A stretch of DNA of 56,588 bases, counting the filler, from Bipalium vagum (Eukaryota), in the NCBI GenBank assembly GCA_037834085.1. It is 3 parts of 3 records of this genome, joined end to end, with 100 filler letters (N's around TTAATTAATTAA, not from the genome) between each part and the next. Parts side by side here need not be neighbours in the genome. Positions count along the whole stretch, not along the records: positions 18,258 to 37,421 come from JBBMKC010008585.1; 2 more parts are not named here. One strand, written 5' to 3'. The notes beneath the pieces are model-generated. The model ran no database searches and was not told the origin of the DNA. It saw only the letters and a list, made by a program, of their open reading frames with translations. Shown here in pieces: positions 9,801-48,819 of this stretch. Numbering within the stretch: position 1 is the stretch's first letter; the number at the start of each line of letters is the position of its first letter. The position numbers and the translations under genes were made by a program.

Positions 9801-12800
9801 AGGTGGTTCCGCATGCTACGTTTGCAATCTCCAGCCAAGTATATCCACAAATGCTCTATAATGAAGAGATCAGGATAGTACGAAGGCTTATGAAAAGTAT
9901 TGATTTTATTTTGCTTTAGAGCAACGATGGAAACTTTAAAAACATGAGGTCGTGCATTGTCATGTTGAAATCAGAGGTTGTACTGTTTCATAAAAGGTAC
10001 AAGGTTTCTCTATGATTTCTTTGGTATACTTTTTACCATTCAAAGTCCCATCAATCATTATCGAAGGGCTTAATTATTGAGAACACATTGTCGCCGATAC
10101 CATAATTGAGCCTTCGCCAAATTGGTGGTGTTGTACGATTCAACAATCTAAAAACCGTTCTGTAATTTGCCGTCTAACTCGAACTCTTCCATCCTGCATA
10201 TCCAAGCAGAACCGTGATTCGTCGGTAAAACCACCTTCTGCCAACTTTTATTAGATCAATTAAGTCTTAGATTTCACCAAATTAACCGGTTAGAATGATT
10301 TAGTGGAATTTTGATAATCGGCCGAAATAAACAAAAACCTAATTGCATGGCACGGCATTATAATCTTCTAAGAGATAGACTTTGTAAAGCTAAGTTCTGT
10401 TGTCTTTGAAACTGGTAAGACTTGGAGCAAGATTACCGAATAGAATGACAAATTGTTCTGCCCATGAGCTCAGTATGTAGACCATTTCACCATAGACCTT
10501 CCTTTAATTCAATACTCTCAGTTTCTTGTCATTCATCAATTCCACCAAAATGTTACAGTTTTTTAGTCCCTACACAGGCTGCGTGTCACCTGACGTTGAG
10601 AGAATCCAGCTTCAAGCAAGGCAACAATTCTTCCTTTTTCAAAATCTATAAGCTCACGGTAAGCCATTTTATACCATATAGAAATCCAAATGATTATAAA
10701 ATCAATATAAACCCCATATACATTACCTAAATAAAAGTTATGATGACATTTGGAATAATAAAAATTCAGTATACCTATCAAATGAATGTTTTTTTAGTCG
10801 TTTTCAAGGTAGTGGGATAATTTTGGCGCACAGTATATTATTTCTGAATTTTGAAGAACCCATAAAGAACTAATTTACAAAAATAAATGTTACATGGTTT
10901 TCTTGGAAATTGTTAAAGACAATATTTTAAATAAATATGTTATGGATTAAAGTGTGTTACTGATATATATTTGATGAACAAATGTATAACACTATATTGA
11001 TGATTATTTGTAAATGTCAATAGAAAATATACCAATTTAACAAATATCTGATATAAATTATTGATTTAATCTGCTTAACAAAAAATTAATTTTTTATCTA
11101 TTCATTGTTCAGACAATTATATAAATCAATGACATTACAAGAAACAATTACATTTTAAATTTATGAGATGAAAAAATTTTTTTCGGCGTTTTCCTTTTTA
11201 TTATCAAATCTTAAAAATCATGGAAGTTTATATATAAGAAAAGTATAAAATGTATAGACGTAAAAATTGAAAAAGTAAAAAAAATAATTTTGCCTGAAAA
11301 TAACAAAATATTCCAATTGATATTGATTTCTAATAATATTGAAGAAAATTCAATAAAGGCCTGTATTCATGTGTCAAATATTACAAAAAAATTGAATAAA
11401 AAAATCTGAAAGACCTTGAGATCAGATTTACTAAGAAAATTTGATAAAAATATTGCACAGAAGGATATGTCATATTAAAAAAATTTTCGATTTCTTTTAT
11501 AAATTAAGAAATGCTGAAATTTTAATATTGAAAGGTAGAAAGAATGATATCGTTATTGATTTTTAAAATTAATGTGAATTTTCTTTCATTAAGATTTATA
11601 ATATATTATATTATTTATTATATTTTTCTTTAATTAAAATTACTAATATATTATGACTTATTCTATATATTCTGTCATCGACAAAAGTCGTTCGCGTCAT
11701 GAAAATTTTTTTAATATGTTGAAAAAAGCGGATAATATTTGATGAAGCAAAATTAATGAGACCGGTTTAACTTTTAAATATTTATCTCTAGTTCTTATGA
11801 TCTTATCAGCATCAGTTTTATCTTGAATTAAGCACAAGACCACTAAGTCATATTTCATATAAAAAATTTACGTTATTCAAGTTACCACCTGAATTTCTTT
11901 AAGAAATAACTACTATCAGTGTTTATTTTCTAATTTGTAATAACGATTAAGAATGTTAAATATGCCACTGTTTCTGGAATTTTCTTTTAAAATCATACGT
12001 GTATAGTTCATTGTTACAGTACGCAAAAGAGGAGTTACTGTATACCAACAAGTTTTATCAATCCACCCAGCTCCCGAAGAAATTCCATCATTAAATGTTT
12101 GGAATTGGCAATTCCCTAGCACGAAAGCTGCATATATTGGTTTATTTCCTCGAGCATGGACCGTTTATGATATTACGGAACAGAAAATAAAATTGTTTTG
12201 TCGTCAAGTACGTATTGGAAACTTTTCAGTTTAGTCTGTAAAACTTTACAACAGGTTTCTCCAGTAATACCCAACGACTATCGAGATTCGTGTTTACCAT
12301 TGAGCTTGTTCAAATGGACGATATTAAATTACAGTAAAGAAAATGTCTGTGTTAGTATTACTTTGGTGATAAAGAATGGAACGGGAAATACGAATAAAGT
12401 TCCTCAGGGTTTGAAGTCTACTCGGTTAAAATACGATGTTTTCGAAGGTTGTTGTATTAAACAGAAAATACGAGACATGGACTGTTGCTACGGGTTAGCA
12501 GTCATGGAAACTGAAACAGTTTCTGTTTCAAGTTGCACATCCATAAAACTGTTTCCTAAACTTACCAATGAAAATTTGCCCGGACCATTTGAATTGTGGA
12601 CCAGTCTGTTGGAATCAGGGGATTTATCGAGTAAGTCAAACCATTTTTTATGGTTCACAATCAGAATTTGATCTAATCACAGAAATGAAAAACGAAGAGG
12701 TCAGTTGTAATAATGCCATAGCTATGGCTACATGTGGAAAAGTAAATGTGAAACCAATGTCGAAATCCGACGAGCTGAGCTTCGTATTCATTTGGCACAT

Positions 12801-15370
12801 GCCAGTTGTACATTTTCGGGATCACCAAGTAAAATATAAAAGGTAAAAAGGTGAATTGATAATTATATGAAGACTTTATTATTTTGGTACTTTAGTCCTT
12901 GAAACTTAAAAATTGACTACCAGAATAGAATATATTAAAACTTTGATTTTTATTAACAATTAATTGCCGTGTTAATGAGTTTTAAAATTAGGTTGGTAAG
13001 AAAATAAAAGCGTTTTTTGTATATTCAAACTTGATAATAGATTCTTTGAAACGCAGAAATTGTTTTACATTTCTCATAAGTTTTTATTAATGGGTGTTCA
13101 ACATATAATGATACTGTCCTCTTTATGTCTCGTAAAACCAAATAATTATGTTTTGTCAAAATCTAAAGAGGATTAACTGAATAAAAGATCAACAATGTCC
13201 AAAATGACAGAATATGGCCAGTTACTCGTGCTGATGTTGATAAGAAAGGTGGTATTAATCAGAAACGGAAATTTCCCAAAGAGTAATGGTTTGGTTGTCA
13301 ATATCTTCCAAAGGTTACAGTCCACTCGTATTTTTTTGAAAAAGGAACAATTAATCAGTACGTTTATATTTAAAAAATACTCAAAGTGGCATAGAAATAT
13401 GGAAATAAGGTTTTTTGGAATAATTGGACATATCCACAAGATGGTGCGACGTGTCATACGGGACGAAAATCAATTAATTGGTGTTCCAACAATTTTGCAA
13501 ATTTATTACAAATCGTTGACTTTCTAATTCACCCGATTTAAATCCTTTGGATTATTGAGTGTGGAATGATTTTGTTCGGAGCATCATGTAGTATCGAATA
13601 ACATCCAAAATGAAATTGATCAGCGAACTGAAGTTAATTTACAAGTATGCAATTGTGGAAAGTTATTATTACTAATTTCTAATTTATATCATATATGTAA
13701 AAGTGATGTTAGAAATATACTAAGTGCTTTATGTAATCAACTTATATGAACCTAAATTTTTTTAAAAAGTTGCTTAAAAAGAAAAAAGTAATATCGATTA
13801 TTTTAAGTTTTTATTGGAACAAAAACAGTTTTGTATATTTAAATTTAACTTTATATTCATAGATTACACATATTTCTTAATGGTAAACTTTTCTCTTATA
13901 CTTTGTAGTACAAAAATTTTATTCATAGGCAGATAATTTTCCCTTGCCTATTCTTTCACCATATTAAAAGAATTGATAACATCATTGATGACATTTGATG
14001 GAATTTTTTCCTCATCGGAAAAATTTCACTGCTAAATTCGTGATTTTCGAGTTAAGAAAAATTGGTCTCATTTATTCAGTTTTGCCCACTCTATTATTTC
14101 ACTTTCATATAAATCAGAGTTGTTTAAGATCGAATTATTTAATATATCTATTGGGATATTATCCTCGTTTGTGATATTTTTGCTAGGTATAACACCTAAA
14201 AATTCGTGAAATGATTGAAAAAGATGTTTAAATAAAATTTTAATTATTGAAGTCTGGATTTCATTTCAAGTTCGAACTATAAAATCAGATTAATAATAAA
14301 AGTGAAGTATTGGGAAATTTCATGAGTTACAAATATGAGGAAACTTGAGGGACAAATGAATCTTTATACAAATTTTTTAGAGCAACTAGGGGATTTTTAT
14401 TTACCTATAATTATTAAATCAAGCTCATGAGTATCTGTTGCGTTTATACATGACATACTCTTGACTCTTTCTTTTATACTTTTCCTTCCATATGCTGCTT
14501 TTTCAAAGATTGCGACATTAGTTTTGTTATGTAAGCCTTTATAAATAAGACCAGTTTCATCAGTGTTTTAAATCTGTTCAAATAAAAAGTCGTTTCAGAA
14601 CACTATAAATGATGAAAAAAGTTTTCGAGATCAATGTATGTCTCAAGCAAAGATTCCTCTCTGTACCTTGGTCTTTTAAGAAGGAAAAAAATTCGTGGAA
14701 GATGACCAACGTTTCAGAAGACTTTTCACATCAAGTGATGACGGACACATTCAAAAAATGAAGTCAGGTTCAAAACGATAGCCGGCTTAAGGCTTAAAAT
14801 CAGATAGATATCTAAAAAAAATTGAATATTTGGGTGACAAATGATTTACGAGGATTTTGATCATCCCTGTAAGATACATATTATCAAGACAGTTCACAGA
14901 TTTCACTTTTAAATTTCCAGAATTATTATTATTAAAACAGGAAAATATAAATTTTATTTAATTTAATGTTAATTTTGTGTTTTTTAATAATATCTGTTTA
15001 ACACTCCTGTAATTCTCTAAGACGATATACACGTTGGTTTGATCACGAAAATCTTGAGCAAGGAGTTATTCAGATGATATCACATTCTTTTAAAAATATG
15101 GTGTCTTGGGAAAGTCAAATAGAAAAATGGCAGAAACCAATTCTCGATAATGAGTACACAATATTTAAAATAATTTGTGTAATTTTCCATTCATTAGAAA
15201 ATATCCTGCCTGGTATAAATCAGGTTTGTTCAACGAGCTTTATTTTATTGTTGATGGGGGCACTGTGTGGTTAGACAGAAAGCTGTCTGTTACAGACTTC
15301 AGTGATAATAATTCTAAAATGGCAAGAATGAAGCATGAAATTGATTTTGGTCTCTTTGGTTATCTCGAAG
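3846..15370 (+). CDS. GBA2: Non-lysosomal glucosylceramidase (GH116), 5' seven exons; remainder lies beyond the contig end
   Basis: Exons 3846-4012, 4059-4266, 12007-12207, 12255-12630, 12665(or 12683)-12842, 15022-15153 and 15198-15370 join in frame with GT-AG introns. Motifs KPFID, [102 protein letters not shown] and FGYLEG match GBA2. No further exon was found before the gap at 18158. Confidence 0.95.
6247..7240 (-). mobile_element. Heavily decayed IS630-Tc1-mariner-like DNA transposon
   Basis: Minus-strand fragments ILVKNNSRFQHAK (resembles ILVMDNARFHH) and FQGWL*HMRR. Very degenerate inverted similarity between about 6250-6335 and 7135-7240. Boundaries approximate. Confidence 0.35.
9183..9537 (-). 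mobile_element. mariner (DD34D) transposase 3' remnant in GBA2 intron 2
   Basis: The minus strand translates to PPLYSPDIAPSDFHLFQSMQDFLAG...FFYRGIHSLSERW*KIVAVNGKYFD*, the canonical mariner YSPDLAPSD motif and C-terminus. Confidence 0.85.
9538..10835 (-). mobile_element. Tc1-family transposon with both TIRs, decayed transposase
   Basis: 27-bp TIRs: TACTGTCTCCCAAAATTATCCCACCAC (9538) vs the reverse complement of 10809-10835, 3 mismatches. N-terminus MAYRELIDFEKGRIVALLEAGFSQRQV, core FTDESRFCL..DGRVRVRR and FQHDNARPH, with stops and frameshifts. Confidence 0.9.
13190..13570 (+). mobile_element. DD37D/maT-like transposase remnant in GBA2 intron 5
   Basis: Frameshifted pieces NVQNDRIW, VMVWLSIS, WTYPQDGATCHT..SINWCSNNF and NSPDLNPLDY*VW. 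The 13195-13527 ORF call is mostly out of frame with these. Confidence 0.75.
14595..14869 (+). mobile_element. mariner N-terminal fragment with a terminal TIR-like end
   Basis: Fragments MMKKVF..DQCMSQAK...FKEG..VEDDQR...TSSDDGHIQKMK (mariner HTH and linker). Ends in TTGATCATCCCTG followed by TA. Confidence 0.6.
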
Positions 15371-21500: not shown

Positions 21501-24500
21501 ATTATTAAGGTAAATACGTATAGGCTTGGAAACAAATTAAATTACTTGACCAATTTTCTCTTTCTAAGTTTCAGAAATCAAAAATTATAAAGAAAGAAAT
21601 TTAACAATTATATGGAAATGCCAATTTTTTAAATTTTTAATATAAATAAAAAAAACATTTCTTCCAGAAGAATTTTTATATTTTTTGTTTCTAAAATTTT
21701 AATTTAATTTAGGGCTAAAAAACTTTTTTCCAAATATTTCAGTAAAAAAAAACAATTATAACAAATGAAACATTAAAAAATAAATACTAAATCTTTTTCT
21801 AATAAAACATTGTTTACATAATCTGACTCTCTAATGGATAGATTTTACGGATTAATTCGGATTAATTAATTTTCGGATAAATTACTTTTTTCTCACAAAT
21901 TCTCTCAAAAATTAAATGTTTTCTATTTCTTTTTCTTGCAAACTCTAAGTAATATAAAAACCGACCATTTCTTATATTAAAATACTTGTTTATAAATAAA
22001 ATTATATTTAATTATTATGTAAATATTTAATCGATTATTTGTTTAAATAATTTCGTTGCTAGATACATTTTTAAATATTGTCCCAGAAATGGTTGTTAAT
22101 CTCCACTGTATTGAGTGTTTAGAGCCAATAAAATAATTATAAAATAGTTCTTTTGGATTTTTGTTTATTTACTCTACTTTTACTGAAACCTTTTTTATTA
22201 TTTAATTTTTTAATTTTTTATTAAATAATTTTATGATAAGGAGTAGAGAGAGGAACCCGCAAAGTTTGGGGGGGATTTCTGATGTGACTCTCTAATGGAT
22301 TTCTTTGCAACTGTTAACCACAGTGAGCATTTTGTGGACCCTATAACCCTTGCACACACTAACATCATCGAGTCAATTTGGCAGAAAATAAAAAATAAGC
22401 ACCGAGGCAGATATGGTACTCACAGATCTCATTTATATTCGTATATCACCGATTTCTTGTGGAAATATCAACATAAGAATAGGCGTTTTGAGACAATTGT
22501 GAGCCATATGAACAATATATATCATGTTTTAAAAATATTTATTTATTCAAAATTTACCAAAAAATTTTTTTTGCGGGGGTTATTCTCCATAAGTGCAGAT
22601 TTTTTAAAACTGAAATAAATTTTTGCAAAGAAAGCGGTGAATAGATTTTTCTGTAGATGTTTCATAGAAGCAATTTAGCTATAAAGTAAATTTTCACTCA
22701 GTTACGAATGTAATAACAATTAAAGTCTGTTAATTAAGGTTGCTGCCATTAAATTAATTATTTGTTAGTCTAAATCGAAATGCCTCTAATTCTGTATAAT
22801 AACTATTCCTAACAGAACGGATCTTCAAAAGGCACCAATTTTCATTTCAGACCACATAATTACCATTCAGACTGAAATCTCTTTTTCATATCATTTTTCT
22901 GTGTCCGGTTATGTCTAGTCAATTTTGACCAGAATTTTCATTAATGGCAAAATTGTTATTATTACCATGATTTCGTTGATATGCGAAAATTACATTATAT
23001 TCCAAAAACAAAAAAGATTAGATTAGGTTTTGTAGAGAAGTTCATTAAATTCCAAGGTAACATTTCAATATGAAATATGTAGATAAGACGAAATTATTTA
23101 TGTGAAATCATAGGGAATCAAAAGCATAACATATTTGTTTGAGCAAAGGTCGCAGATTTTTGTGGAAAATGAGAAGGAAATGGTTTTAAATAAAGGGAAT
23201 CAAAATATATTTACGACCTCGGTCCAATAATAATGGATTTGACTCATAGTAATAAGAAGAATTTTAAAAAAGAAGTAAAGAACCTGTTTTAAATACCATT
23301 TAACTAAAAGTGACATTGAATAAGTAGTAGATCAGTTAAAAAATGTATGGGTCAAATGGTTAATTCCGACAACATGAAGTCATTATAATAATTAAAGTGT
23401 GGGTCAGGCCTAAGTTCACGAAATTGAAAATTATATTGTAATAAATCTGTTAGTAAAATTTAACCAATTATTTCATAAAAATAAGGGAGTCTTGTATTTA
23501 ATTTACAAGATAGAGTACTTAGACTTATTGTGGCTAGGCGACTGGTGAAAGGTTAGGCGTTCTTTTTTCCAGATTACAAGCGACTTTATTGAATATTTTT
23601 GTCTGTCGTGTCATTAACATATTTGTAGATTCACTTGGAAGACCCTTGTATACTTATCTTTGCTAATGGCACATTAGCTTTTAATTAGCCTCAATTGCGG
23701 GCAATTGTGAATGTTGTCTGCGTTAGAAACAGTCAATTTTTATAGTGGAATGTGATAAAACATGTTATTATTAACTTATTTGCACTGGTTTTGAAATGTG
23801 ATTTTAAACATTTTTATATTTGTAATTGTATTTTCAATAGTTGGATTCAAAACTCTAAAATTTGTCTTTGTCCGCTTGAGGGTCACATAAAACTTTCTAT
23901 CTTTTAAACAGTTCAGGGTCTCAAAATTATTAGGTGGAGACTCGTACCTTTTCCGAGGGTTTAACAAGACTATCATTAGTCGTTAAGATCTCTCATCTTT
24001 AAATAAAACTGAGACTAAATAAAATAGTTTGGAAATCAGTTTATTTGAATAAAAGTTGTAATCTGGGCATATAAATATAATTTTGGAGTCATTGTGTTGA
24101 ACTGGTGACAGTTAGAAGAACTAACGTAACTCGTAAGTAACTTAACCCAACAAATCCCCCGATACCATTAATAATACAACATTTTATCATAAATGTGTCA
24201 ATACCATTAAAATTTTCAATTATGTATACCTTGGTTCAATAGTGAATTTTATGGAAGCATCTAAATAATATTTTATTATATCCTCGTCTTTTTATATTAC
24301 TTTATATTCCTTTTTATTTTTCTTATGAAGAGTATTAAATGACAATAAATACTTTTCCGAACGTACTTGTACTTGTACTTCAGATGAATGATTTTAATGT
24401 GACTCGAATGTTATTATAAGCAGCATTGTACGTCTGTTGTTTTACCAAGAATAAATATTTTATTGGTGAAGTGTTCTTACAATCAGTGACATTCTGATTT

Positions 24501-24821: not shown

Positions 24822-25510
24822 CAGGGTGCTCTTTATAAATCGATACAATTTAATACAAAAATTATTTTAACAAAAGCACAATTTATTATTTTACACAATA
24901 TCAATATATTCAAATGTCCACCATGTATCTCATTTCATTTGCGTAAACGTGGAATTTAACTGATACAAGCTTTCCGTATGATCAATGGAGAAGTACCATT
25001 CCAACACTCATCAATCATTTTCTTTGTTTGGTCGACATAGTCAATGTTTGGGTGGTTGTTTGTTACACCAGCGAGAAGTATTCCCCAAAAATTATAATCG
25101 AGAACATTTAAGTCTGGACTCTTGACTGGCCATTGTGTAGGTGTGTTGCGATCTATGCATGCAACTGCGGTTTTACATGTGTGTGCCTTTGCTCCATCCT
25201 GTTGCCATGTCCAAGATTTCTTATTCATTATTTTGTTAATGTCATAAGCATCATTGGATACATTTCGTTTAGGTAAACATTCTGGTTAACAGTATTTTTC
25301 TTCTTAAAATAATTAGGAATACCTTTCTTTTTATCCGTACATCCATCGATAAACCTTAGTTGTGATTTCCAATACCGAGATACTGCTGCATAACACATTA
25401 TGAAACTATAACCTATATCAAAATATCATATCAGTTTTTACTATGACCTCTCGATATATAAGGTCATTTTGACGATTCAGTGGTGACGATAGACTGAAGA
25501 AACCAAACAT
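24822..25510 (-). mobile_element. DD37D/maT-like transposon 3' half nested in the pogo element
   Basis: TIR-type end TA|CAGGGTGCTCTTTATAAATCGATAC. ORF 24956-25228 reads WTWQQDGAKAHT...QWPVKSPDLNVLDYNFWG; the D-to-D spacing is 32 here, compatible with a small deletion from 37. Confidence 0.8.
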
Positions 25511-25780: not shown

Positions 25781-27679
25781 TCGCACATCTCACCGAACTA
25801 TAGTTATAAAGGTTTAAATAAAGAAACTTTTGTTACAACAGATAGGCGGTTTAATCAAAAAACGAAAGAACAATATCTGCAGATTTACTCATAGCAGATC
25901 ATTTGATTAAGGAGGAATGGCCTAAGATTAAAGCATAACATTCATCTGATAATATTTACAACACTAATGAAACAGGGCTTTTCGTCGTGCATTACCTGAG
26001 CACATGTTTATATTTAAAACGGATATTCAAAATGGTTAAAAAATTTCAAAGGACAAATTAACAATCATGTGTTGTATAAAAATGTCTTCTTACAACCGTT
26101 GGTTATTGGAAAGTCAAAAAATCTGCGTTGTTTCAAAGGCTTAAAAATTACCAGCTGACCACTATGCGAATTCAAAAGCTTTGATAATCTAATTTCCAAT
26201 GAATGGTTATTTAAATGGAACAAAAACTTGAATCACAAAAGAGTACTACTTGTTGCAAATTGTACTGCTCATGTGGTTGATGTTTCACTGAAGCACATTG
26301 AAATGTTTTTTTTACCATATAACATACCTTATCCAACCATGCGATCAAGGAATCCTACGAACTTTTAAAGCATATTATCGTCTTGAATTAAGAAGGTAAA
26401 TATTAAAAAAAAAACATAGAGGACAATGGTTAGGTAGTAAAATGGATATTCTATAGGCTTTCCATGTTATATCTATGTCATGGAAAAGTGTCTGACATAA
26501 TTCGGAAATTTTTCAGACATGGTGGATTTTCTGCAGATGATAAAGAATGCGCCTCTGATGAGACGCCTGGTTTTAATCCAAATATTTTCAAAATTGGGTG
26601 TCAATTCATGAAAACATTCAGACTACAACCAGATCTAACAATTTCTAACATTTACCAGATTGTTACTCAAACTGAACCTGAATCATCCATCAAAAATAAA
26701 ACAAAAGAATCTGTAAACCTCCTTCTACTTCTCAAATGGGACAAGATCTTAAGGCTAGGTGTTCAGTATCGATCTGAAGAATTTAATAAACTCTGAATTT
26801 GAGGAACATGTGAAAGATTTATTAAATGAACCAAGAAGCAAACAACAATTTATTATATTTTCAAAAATAATTTGTTATTATATTGTTATTGTTATTCTTC
26901 TTGTTACCGTAACATGGTTTTATATGGACTAAGCTTTAAAATTAGTTAATTCGAAATTTTTATCAATCGGTTATTGTTATTATTTTCATCAGGTCCCGAA
27001 GTTATTATGTTGAGTGACCTCTACTGTTCAAGTATTGGTTTAAGTAATAATTTATAAAATTATAAAATAATAGTATTATTATTAATACTCACATAATATA
27101 TATATTTTAATATAAAATTATAACGTATTATTTATTTTCACGAAACAAGTAATTATTATTTTCACTTATTAAACTAATGCATTCTTAATGAATTCTGAAT
27201 CTTTTTCAAAGTATTTTTTGATTCTCTCATTCACATCGAACAGGGAGGATTAAAATCGATTTTTTAAATAATAATAATTTGAAATGTTATCAAAATATTC
27301 TTGTTAGTTTTAATAATGTTTTATTAAAAAATAAACATGAAAATATCAAATCGCAACGAAGTAAAAATTTATTAGAAAATTAATTCGATGAATTTATTTT
27401 GATTACTTTCAGAGACTGATCTGAATTAACAGAGATTCTAGAAGTTACGGGGAAAAGTATAAAAATTAAATTAACATGAACAAATTTTTTGTACTTTACT
27501 TTGAATAAAAATAAAAATGTAAAAAATAGTCTATGTATTAAAGTCAATAATATTTTTCTTTTGTCTATGGTTCTAATAATTAATAATAATAGTTTAGGTC
27601 TCATCAATTTTTTTATTTTCACATTTTTGTAGGGGATTACTATAAATCTTTCCAGAATTTCATTTTGAGAATGACTAAA

Positions 27680-27745
<66 letters not shown>
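27680..27745. repeat. (AAT)22 microsatellite
   Basis: Direct read of a perfect trinucleotide run. Confidence 0.97.
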
Positions 27746-27746
<1 letters not shown>

Positions 27747-28269
27747 GAATAGTAATAGAAAAATCGATTCCATTAAAATAGGATAACGATTTTCTCGAAT
27801 AAACGATTTTTTTTAATTATGATAAAATATATTTTATTTGAATTTTACAAAAATTTTTATTCAATAATGTTACATTTCGTTAACGATGTCTGATCAGTCT
27901 GGAAATTATTATAGGGACTGAAAGGGGAGATGAGAACATTGTTCTTTTCTCAGAGCCTGACGAGGCTGAAGTCAAATTTCTCATCAATAAATATTAATAT
28001 TTATTTAGTCTTAATTTCGGGAATATGTCGCTTGGTGGGTAACGTTAGCAGATTCCTCACCATGCTCATCAGTGATAATTTGATCACCACTATTATCGTC
28101 CTCAGGAGTCACAGGCCTCCAGGTATTTGGAATCCATCAGGAAAACGTCTCAAGCAAAACTGTCAAGCAAAAGATTCTTTCTTCCCACTCCACCCCCCCG
28201 AAACTGACCCCCCCCCGCACTGACTGTTCAGAAAGATTTACACGGTTTCTATACAATTCCAATGGAAAG

Positions 28270-29546
28270 TTATCTTATTATTTTGTTGGTGTGAGAATTG
28301 ACAATAGAGCTCGGACAGTCCAATTTACGAATGATGGTTTCTTTCGTTGACAATGACACCGAAGGTTTGGACGATGATTTCCGTTTTGGGCAAAACGGTC
28401 CACTGTGCAGATGGTGAATGGAAATACAAAATTCATATATTGACGATTGTTGCTCCCAGTCGTTTTTGGACCATGAAATACTGTAGTATTTAATACAACG
28501 GCCATTCATGTAAAAGTGGGTGAATATCTTCCGGAAATCCGACGACATGATGCAGTACAAGACAAACGTTATGGCATTTTTAAACAAGGTTAACAGGTCC
28601 ATCAAGTCTCCCAAGTAGAGGTAGACACAGTAGCTGCGATGAGATACTTTGGACATGAATTGCATTATCGCGTGGGGCACCTCAGCAATGAGAATGATGA
28701 TGATGATGACAATCAGCAGTCGAGTGGTTCGGTAATGGCTGCCACGGGGTTTACGGGAAAGGTGTGTGGTGGACAAACGTTCAACTATTAAAGATCGTTT
28801 TCTTTCCTCATTCAATACCATACTGCCAGGAGAGCGCCGATAAAGATGACCATTATCAAAGATGGGATGATTTTATCTAGAATGGACACCATCCAGAAGC
28901 TGTAAATGTCGAGAATGGGCATTTCCTGATGACGTGTGGCCTGGTATAACAGACTTTGATTGACGTCGTTTGAGTTGTTGGTTTCAAAGGATTTGTATCT
29001 GATAGTCTGGGTGAAGAGATAGGGAATAATCAAAACGATGTTACACAACAAACAGCCACAAATGATGGTAAACGCTCGACGTTTCAGCTGCTGAACTTGG
29101 TATCTCAAAATGGCGGTGATTTTACATCGTCTGACAATGTAATACCTTAAAATGGCCAGTGCTGCTCCCAACCACACGGTGGTGTTGTGAGATACCAAGG
29201 AGATATTTGAGCATACGAGATAGTAGAAGACCCATCCCCAATTATCGTACCAAGGGTTCACTTTCATCAAGGTTTTCAGATCGATGATGTAAAACTTGAT
29301 CAGCACGGGAAGCTGAACGCAACAGATGATGATATCAAACGATGCCAGTGATAACAATATCATGTTGGTTGATGTTCTCATTCTTTTGTGGTTTAAAACG
29401 AAAACATTGAAGATATTTGTAATAATGGAGATCAAACAAATGAACACTCCGAAATACCCATACAGAGACAGGAACTTGGTATGGAACCCTTCCAGGCTGT
29501 GATCGAGGCAATGATCCTCGATCGAGGAGGTATTGTTTGAATGCAT
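28270..29546 (-). CDS. Rhodopsin-family peptide-type GPCR (FMRFamide/myosuppressin/Srw-like), intronless, split into two overlapping ORFs (TM1-5: 29546-28812; TM6-7 plus tail: 28821-28270)
   Basis: TM1 GYFGVFICLISIITNIFNVFVL, RMRTSTNMILLSLASFD (TM2), HNTTVWLGAALAILRY (TM3), KIIPSLIMVIFIGALL (TM5), RTTRLLIVIIIIILIAEVP (TM6) and DLMDLLTLFKNAITFVLYCIMSSDFR (TM7/H8). A single frame change near 28815-28860 is the only lesion. It may be a pseudogene or an assembly error. Confidence 0.9.
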
Positions 29547-30064: not shown

Positions 30065-30755
30065 CAGTACCTGGCCAAGTTAATTGAATCGATAAGAGAA
30101 AATAATATAAGGCTTTATTTGATCCTTTATTTTATCTTAAACTCAATGTATTTCTTATATCATTATAAAATGACCTTGAGAAAATTTTGAACCAATCTTT
30201 TTATTTTGTTGGCTCTCCTTTGGGTTTCATCAATCAATTAATGCGAACAGGCACGGTTTCAATACATTTATTAACCAAATTCAATATTTCCAAGTCATCA
30301 TTCCAAACTTCCAGGAGGCTTTCTAATAGTTATTTTTTGTGAATTTTGTCATCAATTCTTTGTCTTACGTGATCCCAAATGTTCTCTATTTGGTTCATAT
30401 CCAATAAATTACCAGGCCTAAGGAGTAGATCAACATTCTTATTTGTAGGAAATTTAGTTACGGACTTCGATTCTGTCATCATAACAGGAGGTTCTATTAT
30501 GCATAAATGTATAATTTTTTCCTCTTGAAAACAATGGTCGACATTGTGATAGTAGTTTTTCATAAGATATTTGAATGTATTGATCAAGAATTAGCCTTAC
30601 TCCCTTGCTCTTTTATTACTGATCCTACCATGAAGGATTGGGGATGTTTCATTTTGCTTACCAAGCCGTCTTTGATCATCTTTTCATTAGAAATGCATCG
30701 GAAGAACTTTGCATTGTCATGAAACACCTTAAATACGGATTCATCACTAAAGTAG
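30065..30755 (-). mobile_element. Tc1-family 3' half
   Basis: TA|CAGTACCTGGCCAAG end. Minus-strand FSDESVF and RPGNLLDMNQIENIWDHV ([13 protein letters not shown]-like). Confidence 0.8.
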
Positions 30756-36773: not shown

Positions 36774-37421
36774 TGTTCTGAACGAAAAATAAATCTTTAA
36801 AAAAATAAATAATATATAATTCACATCAATGCATTTTAAAGGAAATAAAAAAATATATAAATAATAACTGAAGTTAATATATATTAAGAATATAAACAGT
36901 TAATTCGTTCTTCATAACAGTATAAAATATAAAAGGTGAAGATGAAAAATATTTATTTAAACAAATAAAAAATAAATAACATCACTCCACCATTGTACAA
37001 GATTATTGGTATTTCTTCAACCACTCGATTCTCCTTAATTTTGTTCCATCTGGACCATTAAGTTTGATCTGGTGTGACGATATAAATTTGATTATCTTAT
37101 AGGGGTCGTCGTAATGGAATTCATTTTTCCTTCTGTTCTGCGGTTCCCTTCTTACTAAAACTTCTTCACCAATTCTGAATTCTCGATGATCTCTCTTGTC
37201 CTTCTCAAAAACACTCATTTTGTAAGCTGCCAAATCTAAATTCCTCGTCACCTGAGCTGTGATCTCTGTTTCTGGAACGACAGTTCCATTCCTTCCAGAG
37301 TGTAAGTTAACTCTATATCTAAATACAATTTCGAACGGTGAGAGTTTTGTAGTGCTCTGCTGAGTTGCGTTGATACTGAATTCTATTCTTGGAAGTAGTT
37401 CAGACCAGTTTCTTTCTAAAC
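36774..37421 (-). mobile_element. Ty3/Gypsy LTR retrotransposon 3' end (integrase C-terminus, PPT, probable 3' LTR), truncated by the contig end
   Basis: Open frame from the gap to the stop at 37003: NWSELLPRIEFSINATQQSTTKLSPFEIVF...FRIGEEVLVR...KNEFHYDDPYKIIK (GPY/F module). It is followed by the purine tract GGTGGAGTGA and a TGTT...AACA-bounded AT-rich segment at 36981-36774 (the LTR end is tentative). Confidence 0.88.
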
Positions 37422-47000: not shown

Positions 47001-48819
47001 AGAAATGTATTGATTTTCAGGCATTTTTAAATTTCATCAACTTGACATGATTATTGAAGTTGTCTAGATCGCTCAAGAATATTTCTTTTCTCCACATTTA
47101 ATAATAGTTCAGTTATTCTTTCACAATTGCTCGATCTCTTTTTCTGAAGCTTTTTTTAAAAATTGAAAATAAAAAATGTTTATTTTTGATTTTAGTATAA
47201 CCATGATATCAGCCAATTAAATTATTGTGGGTCTTATCAAATTAGAAACTATCGATGCTTAGTATTATATGACATACGATTGTTTTATTAATTATCTGTA
47301 TTATTTTCATTTTTAATCAATCTATTTTTACGATATTATCTTTCGTCTTTTTTCTGATTTAGAAAGATTTTTTGATTAGTGAAATTTTAGAATTTGGAAA
47401 TATGAATATAAAAGACGAGGAATTTACATGATTAAAAAGTTTTGTCGATAAACTATTATTTTAATTTCTTTTACTCCAACGCATTTCTATAGCTTCTCCA
47501 GGTACAAATGGAATCATCCTCGCTACACGGTTACCTATTACTCAACAAACCAACAATACCAGCAACATATTGTCTTCGTCCTCTATAATTCGAGATTGCA
47601 ACAAAAAGACATTGATTCGTCAAAAGAGAAATGTGAAAACCCCCAACACGATAACACTGGCAACAGCGGCACCAACATCAGCAGCGACAACACAACAACC
47701 GGTAAATGCATTGTTCCGAGGCGAATTTCTTCCCAATGCCAATGCAAACAATGAAATGAAGCCGGCCAGATCACGTCGCTATAACAACATGCGAAAAGTA
47801 CTGCTTGACAGTCACAAAGCTGTACTGATGCCAGATTATTTGACACCATTCACGGACATGACGGACGCTGTTCAAAGACTGTTACCATATCACATCTTCG
47901 AGGAAAGCAAGGATGTCAAAACCACCGAAGGTTTTTAACATTTGATTTTTTTCACCAATCAAATCGTGTTGTATTTACAATTTTCAGTGGATAAAATTCT
48001 TGACAACGCTTTCAGCGAATTGAACAAGAAATGTGCCAACTTGAAAAGAATCACTTCTGCTCTTTCGATGAATATATTATTAGTAAGATGATTTACCATG
48101 TTTTTATTGATTTAAAATTGCATTATTCTCTTAAAATAATATTTTTAAAATTATCAATTTCGCATTAATTTATATTTTTTATCGTTTTTTATTATTTTAA
48201 ACAATTCCAATCAATTTTGTTTACATTTCAATGTTTGAAAATTAAATATTAATTCTTAAAATTAATTTTTTTTAATATAATATTGATTAATAAATTATTA
48301 TAATCAATTGTGAAAATAGAGAAAAATAATCAATGTGATTATTGATTGTATTCTTGTTTTTCAATTTGTGCAATACAATGGGTGTCAACAATTTTGAAAA
48401 ATTTAAAGATTTTTATATTTTTTTAAAATTTTACACTCCGTGATAAAATTAAGTAATTTAATTATTTCCAAAAAACACTACAAGTTTTTGGATTATAACT
48501 TTTTAAAAATTCGAATTGTTACTATGCAAATGTATAAGTTCTTTGTCTTTTTAAGAGGAGATATACTTAAGGTACACTTAATTGTCTAATTTTAATCATC
48601 AAAATAAGAATATTTTAAAATTATCATCTTTTACCATTGGACAATTAATAAATGAATAATATTTATGAAAAGAAACGAATATTTTAACTCATCAATGAAT
48701 TTTAGCATTCCCAGGTGTTCTGACGAGTTTTGGTTGCAAAGAAAATGCTGTACAGGTCTGAGAATATAATCTTCAGAAATTCTAATGGAAAATCCATGTA
48801 ACGTTTTCCACAAATCGAA

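Follow-up and report, generated by a model that had tools for sequence, protein, structure and literature searches.

The window, that is, the whole stretch of 56,588 nucleotides of Bipalium vagum DNA that was analysed, carries on its minus strand a receptor gene that falls into two overlapping open reading frames (ORFs), present with the coordinates, ends and frames described in the first-pass annotation. The features of the locus are as follows.

28812..29546, minus strand: ORF1, 244 aa, from the N-terminus and TM1 to most of TM5; residues 1-240 are in the family frame and are followed by AVWY and TGA, the end reading GCA GTA TGG TAT TGA
28825..28827, minus strand: site of the apparent 1-nt deletion, codon 241, of which two bases remain; the exact position is ambiguous by 1-2 bases
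28819..28821, minus strand: ATG, Met243 of the family frame, 15 residues past the TM5 proline P228
28812..28814, minus strand: premature TGA, four codons past the frameshift
28270..28824, minus strand: remainder of the gene in the family frame, with the cytoplasmic end of TM5, a short ICL3, TM6, TM7, helix 8 and the tail
28821 to 28270, minus strand: ORF2, 183 aa from the ATG; its frame is open from 28872

The A of the ATG at 28821 lies 7 nt ahead of the T of the TGA, and stop and start overlap within 10 nt. ORF1 and ORF2 are the halves of one single-exon Srw/DMSR-like G protein-coupled receptor (GPCR). In the Pfam search, ORF1 (51.9 bits), ORF2 (28.7 bits) and the intact orthologue P0003 (81.5 bits, see below) all scored above the cut-off of 22.2 bits for the Srw family (PF10324, 7TM_GPCR_Srw), with ORF1 matching profile positions 3-216 and ORF2 positions 229-315. 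The window gene keeps 23 of the 24 near-invariant residues of the family, and the remaining one (S40) is altered in the intact P0003 as well. The seven TM helices stand in one reading frame in P0003 but not in the window gene, which is frameshifted at codon 241. The locus is a broken member of the Srw/dmsr-1-like peptide GPCRs: it shares with them the scores of both halves above the Srw cut-off and the 7TM fold of its intact orthologue, and it differs by the frameshift in TM5, the long branch of its orthogroup and the lack of any named member. The receptor is an orphan, and its named relatives are about 30% identical and are mostly mollusc 'dmsr-1-like' proteins.

The gene lies on contig C8585 of the assembly (G000), in which it gives one DNA match and its junction pattern occurs once. 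The nearest paralogues are 34-35% identical, and no second allele or close intact paralogue was found in this assembly, which can collapse alleles. A profile search gave 86 Srw matches in the genome, a number that can be compared with the expansion of Srf/w receptors in planarians described in PMC4862687. A search with six motifs in four supplements of that paper gave no match that would name an Srw/Srfa/b/c/PROF1 subcluster. The srw family is spread across protostomes, according to PMC3963977.

A protein search identified P0003 (Logan, 410 aa in one frame), which is 62% identical to ORF1 over 240 aa with no gaps and 63% identical to ORF2 over 164 aa. It aligns with ORF1 without a gap up to L240 and then continues through H-S-M into ORF2. 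A second protein search found P0004 (ENA) and P0006 (JGI), both of 367 aa and differing from each other at one residue, which are 65% identical to P0003. The junction is unbroken in P0003 and in P0004/P0006 (GALL-H-S-M-A-[IL]-NEERK), which all derive from other samples than the window. DNA for P0006 is available as the JGI metagenome contig L016, where the orthologue reads TTG CAC AGC ATG and the window CTG GC AGT ATG; in this alignment the window lacks one base of codon 241, a codon for His in both orthologues. The first-pass annotation had guessed that an extra base behind A-V would fuse the ORFs, which is close, but the base is lacking further upstream, in codon 241. In a tree of 22 rows, in which the window gene was entered with X at the break, the window gene, P0003 and L016 formed one clade with a support of 100/100, and the branch of this orthogroup is long, at 2.41 changes per column. 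When P0003 was compared with 1.84 billion representatives, only P0004 exceeded 40% identity among the best 150 matches.

The annotation had put forward a naturally split receptor, and had named single-ORF orthologues, combined with a lack of ORF2 translation, as speaking against it. Single-ORF orthologues were found as far as the junction is concerned, P0003 being of full length and L016/P0004/P0006 being continuous there; the split arrangement occurs in neither of the two orthologue lineages. Because the relatives keep the junction intact, the window gene looks like an ordinary recently disabled copy and not like a two-part receptor. Most likely, then, it is a null allele or a very young pseudogene of a single-exon Srw/DMSR-like GPCR, with one base missing from codon 241. 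A recent null allele or a 1-bp error had been the fallback reading of the annotation, and the one-base gap relative to continuous orthologues supports it.

Several observations concern the age of the lesion. Between the window gene and L016, pS was saturated at 0.79 (185 ORF1 codons) and 0.94 (105 ORF2-core codons), values inflated by the gap in GC3 between the window gene (0.58) and L016 (0.33), while pN was 0.24 and 0.17, respectively; therefore, both halves have long been under purifying selection. As the annotation had remarked, neither half shows another lesion, as judged against the two orthologues. Since both halves were under long purifying selection and there is no second lesion, the deletion should be recent. 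Among the three orthologues, the odd-one-out core positions number 36 for the window gene, 39 for L016 and 25 for P0003; all six relative-rate tests were not significant (p 0.23-0.52), and no relaxed selection is visible yet. The 424 codons offer 191 single changes to a stop codon. Under a simple model in which indels are assumed to arise at 0-10% of the rate of substitutions, the presence of a single lesion corresponds to less than about 2-5% neutral divergence. Judging from the frameshift, the gene would have lost its function, and the lesion may be a polymorphism. For comparison with the GC3 of the gene (window 28270-29546), 26 paralogue ORFs range from 0.26 to 0.59 in GC3, and their median is 0.385.

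The orthologue L016 appears to have a break of its own. At L016:335-472 (plus strand), a 16-nt deletion in TM1 relative to the window causes a frameshift and the loss of two conserved Asn positions, and the upstream ATG (L016:335) runs for 45 codons to a stop. Both P0004 and P0006 begin at an internal Met, which fits a lesion shared by the two, the DNA basis being the JGI metagenome contig only. Thus, of the three orthologue lineages, one is of full length, as known from its protein sequence, and the other two seem to be broken, each at a place of its own. The TM1 deletion of L016 suggests that the receptor can be lost, and an old, long-conserved orthogroup that is broken differently in two of the three lineages found is a small hint of repeated recent loss. 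In PMC2576165, nematode chemoreceptors, srw included, are described as undergoing birth-and-death evolution with many single-defect alleles. The C. elegans 'flatliner' chemoreceptor alleles treated there resemble the window gene in that a single lesion disables a chemoreceptor-like GPCR gene that is sound in all other respects. However, the window gene belongs to another phylum, and its fully covered paralogues are intact in 35 of 35 cases.

This last count comes from a control with 59 distinct paralogue contigs (the 30 best Srw matches, 20 partial or stop-bearing ones and 9 others). In 35 loci (36.7 kb), the whole core lies in one frame and there is no frameshift; L055, which has a stop near its end, was left out of this count. 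The other 23 contigs match in part, four of them ending at a donor-like GT in TM6. Because none of the fully covered paralogues is broken, the family is not in general decay here, and a few more broken genes may be hidden among the partly matching paralogues. One paralogue, L071 (contig C229007), has a putative 47-nt GT-AG intron in ICL3 (L071:4153-4199), which would explain why it had looked like a second gene split in ICL3. Furthermore, L072-L075 match solely from ICL3 onward or in separated pieces (the two pieces of L072 are 3.8 kb apart). From the putative intron of L071 and this pattern, it follows that one subfamily of the paralogues likely has an intron in ICL3.

An alternative is that the animal has an intact gene and that the base was lost through an error of sequencing or assembly. 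In favour of this, the gene has one lesion only and no sign of relaxed selection, and the assembly is fragmented, with 272,664 contigs, among them one of 38 kb. However, the junction is not a homopolymer, as the annotation had also stated, and no frameshift occurs in the 36.7 kb of fully covered paralogues. The contig statistics suggest short reads, which rarely give such errors. Furthermore, run X1 contains 132 sampled words at a share of 1.00; with about 30 words spanning the break and a sampling of about one word in 10, the chance that none of the sampled words spans it is about 4% (about 96% that one does), although these are sampled words and not reads across the site. Among the X1 contigs left after a filter on the records, none covered 28746-29309, a gap that proves nothing by itself. 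No RNA run was among those listed as containing the gene, which says nothing about its expression. The contigs of X1 (1.84 million records, the longest of 21 kb) differ from those of G000, and thus two assemblies agree, although they may come from the same reads. The agreement of the X1 words argues against an assembler slip, although X1 may be the data behind G000. On balance, we regard an error as unlikely, and a real and recent deletion is likely to be behind the missing base.

If an mRNA is made from the gene with the deletion, it would yield a 244-residue product that ends within TM5. Lacking TM6-7 and the basic cytoplasmic end of TM5, this product would likely be retained and degraded, and ORF2 would likely not be translated to a useful extent. 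One could instead suppose that the 5-TM product is useful in itself, for example by modulating paralogous receptors in a dominant-negative way: the open frame of ORF1 extends over 244 codons, and truncated GPCR isoforms with five TM helices, such as GHSR1b, are known. However, the truncation is recent and is conserved in neither orthologue, and the product ends in AVWY with no basic residue after TM5, so that any effect would be accidental at most. We consider this quite improbable.

The place of the break in the protein bears on the idea of two cooperating halves. We modelled P0003 with AlphaFold2 from a 96-row alignment (mean pLDDT 82.7). The model is a 7TM receptor whose best solved match is CCK1R (TM-score 0.76 by target), followed by other peptide receptors. 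In the model, TM5 is a single helix of residues 210-257, with mean pLDDT in blocks of 91-96 over residues 211-250 and 82 over residues 251-260, and the loop comprises only residues 258-268, about 11 residues. The break at 240/241 would thus fall inside the predicted TM5 helix, 17 residues ahead of the loop, and not exactly at the border of TM5 and ICL3 as the annotation had it; because the predicted helix runs over 210-257, ORF1 stops 17 residues short of the loop. At this place P0003 reads HSMAINEERKR, whereas the AVWY end of ORF1 includes no basic residue. A cut within the TM5 helix would presumably impair folding or coupling.

The ATG at 28821 had been singled out for its strong context, and it does have A at -3 and G at +4. 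However, it is not special in this respect, since the uninterrupted frame of L016 shows this context too (cacagcATGg); the two share it because the Ser codon before the ATG gives A at -3 and the Val or Ala codon after it gives G at +4. Of the seven in-frame ATGs in ORF1, one other (28853) has both A at -3 and G at +4. The column of Met243, which we take to be position 5.65, a G-protein-facing hydrophobic site, is hydrophobic in all 96 aligned homologues (L 44, M 36, I 11, V 5). As read from the codons, the ATG and its context simply follow from a conserved S-M-[AV]. Because the L/M position near the end of TM5 is conserved, spurious restart ATGs are to be expected after frameshifts, and scans of genomes should take account of the fact that any nearby frameshift in this Srw/DMSR-like family yields a seemingly well-placed restart ATG.

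In the split-receptor reading, TM1-5 and TM6-7 would be made separately, by reinitiation or internal initiation at the ATG at 28821, and would reassemble into a working receptor. The overlap of stop and ATG within 10 nt and the retention of the family residues in both halves agree with this proposal, and PMC11093360 provides a precedent: TM1-5 and TM6-7 fragments of the M2 muscarinic receptor reassemble, and M2 with a stop in the i3 loop is partly functional through internal initiation at an IRES. The split M2 and the IRES-made M2tail resemble the window gene in giving TM1-5 and TM6-7 pieces from one message with an in-frame Met before TM6. However, in M2 the cut and the restart lie in the long i3 loop, the IRES is mapped and the natural gene is intact, whereas the cut in the window gene is within the predicted TM5 helix of a receptor with a predicted loop of about 11 residues. 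The likeness to split receptors is in outline only and fails in the position of the cut and in conservation, neither orthologue being split at the junction and the ATG with its context being inherited from a continuous frame. Furthermore, an insensitive search for relatives of ORF1 at 134-427 aa gave none but the full-length P0003, and no stand-alone TM6-7 relative of ORF2 (100-321 aa) was scored among 81 candidates in a search that was likewise insensitive. In the literature on naturally or frameshift-split GPCRs, we found M2tail and a truncated NMUR2 splice variant; others may be in print.

In PMC5972666, reinitiation downstream of a long ORF is described as presumably very rare unless special elements are present. 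That source gives UGGGA as the core of the termination-reinitiation element TURBS and also mentions some viral reinitiation sites without motif 1, which leave room for other modes of reinitiation that may operate. We found no TGGGA or TGGG motif (UGGGA in mRNA) within 120 nt upstream of the stop. The window gene resembles the TURBS sites of caliciviruses and influenza B in having a start codon near and upstream of the stop, but it differs in the lack of the UGGGA motif 1 and in that its overlap is explained by a 1-nt deletion beside a conserved Met codon. Reinitiation at a split receptor, the headline of the first-pass annotation, is thus not supported, being absent from the orthologues, relying on an inherited ATG, cutting the TM5 helix and lacking UGGGA, and we consider it very improbable. 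It would be just as surprising if a chance 1-nt deletion, having put a stop behind an inherited Met codon, had left a working two-chain GPCR encoded by one message, with a TM1-5 chain and a chain of the TM5 tip and TM6-7, an accidental 'pseudo-pseudogene'. A split form that worked would be a GPCR of two chains found in nature, the counterpart of the engineered split receptors, and would show that a frameshifted receptor gene could stay active via reinitiation after a long ORF. In its most likely state, as an orphan receptor copy that broke recently, the gene matters little by itself.

In principle, recoding could give a full-length or nearly full-length receptor, the routes being splicing and a -1 ribosomal frameshift. 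On paper, the frame is regained with any of 16 GT-AG pairs (25-250 nt), and short introns occur in this genome, the putative one of L071 among them. However, each of the 16 pairs deletes about 15-71 residues with aligned counterparts in the orthologues, and we rejected rescue by an intron since all of the candidates take out aligned coding sequence. The 80-nt GT-AG intron (28818-28739) pointed out in the annotation does restore the frame, but at a cost of about 27 residues; it would leave about 20 residues from P228 to T275, compared with 35-64 in 96 homologues. The AT content of the candidates is 52-60%, and the acceptor of the 80-nt one is poor in T, whereas the putative L071 intron is 70% AT. 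As for frameshifting, no X-XXY-YYZ slippery heptamer was found in the ORF1 frame at 28875-28814, in agreement with the annotation, and a -1 shift before codon 240 would replace TM5 with polar residues. Recoding of either kind is hard to credit. An excision footprint of a Tc1/mariner element, which has the form TA-TGG-TA and a net gain of 5 nt, was also rejected as the origin of the junction, where TA-TGG-TA occurs, since the window has lost 1 nt instead of gaining 5 nt relative to the orthologue, and the heptamer is matched by conserved codons in the alignment.

The surroundings of the gene contain transposon remnants (window 22283-22618, 24956-25285, 30330-30590 and 37003-37421). Among these are an IS1595/Merlin-like DDE sequence (Pfam match) and a weak DDE_3 match (E 0.077); two further remnant ORFs, with no Pfam match, look Tc1-like and Gypsy-like to us. 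A (TAA)28 microsatellite lies at window 27676-27757, and two G runs (minus strand) lie just downstream of the stop of the gene at 28190-28217.

Three different open COX1 sequences were found in the assembly, L037 (C253947), L038 (C246471) and L039 (C253320), in addition to many decayed copies. In L037, the best COX1 contig, AAA reads as Asn and ATA as Ile at codons that we take to be conserved COX1 motif positions, which fits NCBI table 9, a code common to flatworms and echinoderms. Of these two, the COX1 motifs and the 86 Srw matches in the genome point to a flatworm. L038 is similar to but distinct from L037, and L039 is more distant. Because of these two further, different COX1 sequences, the assembly seems to include some foreign DNA or nuclear copies; prey, a second species or nuclear copies are possible sources. 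The other parts of the stretch contain exons of a GBA2-like glucosylceramidase (window 12171-15274; PF12215, below the cut-off) and a GLTSCR1/BICRA-like gene (window 47465-47938; PF15249).
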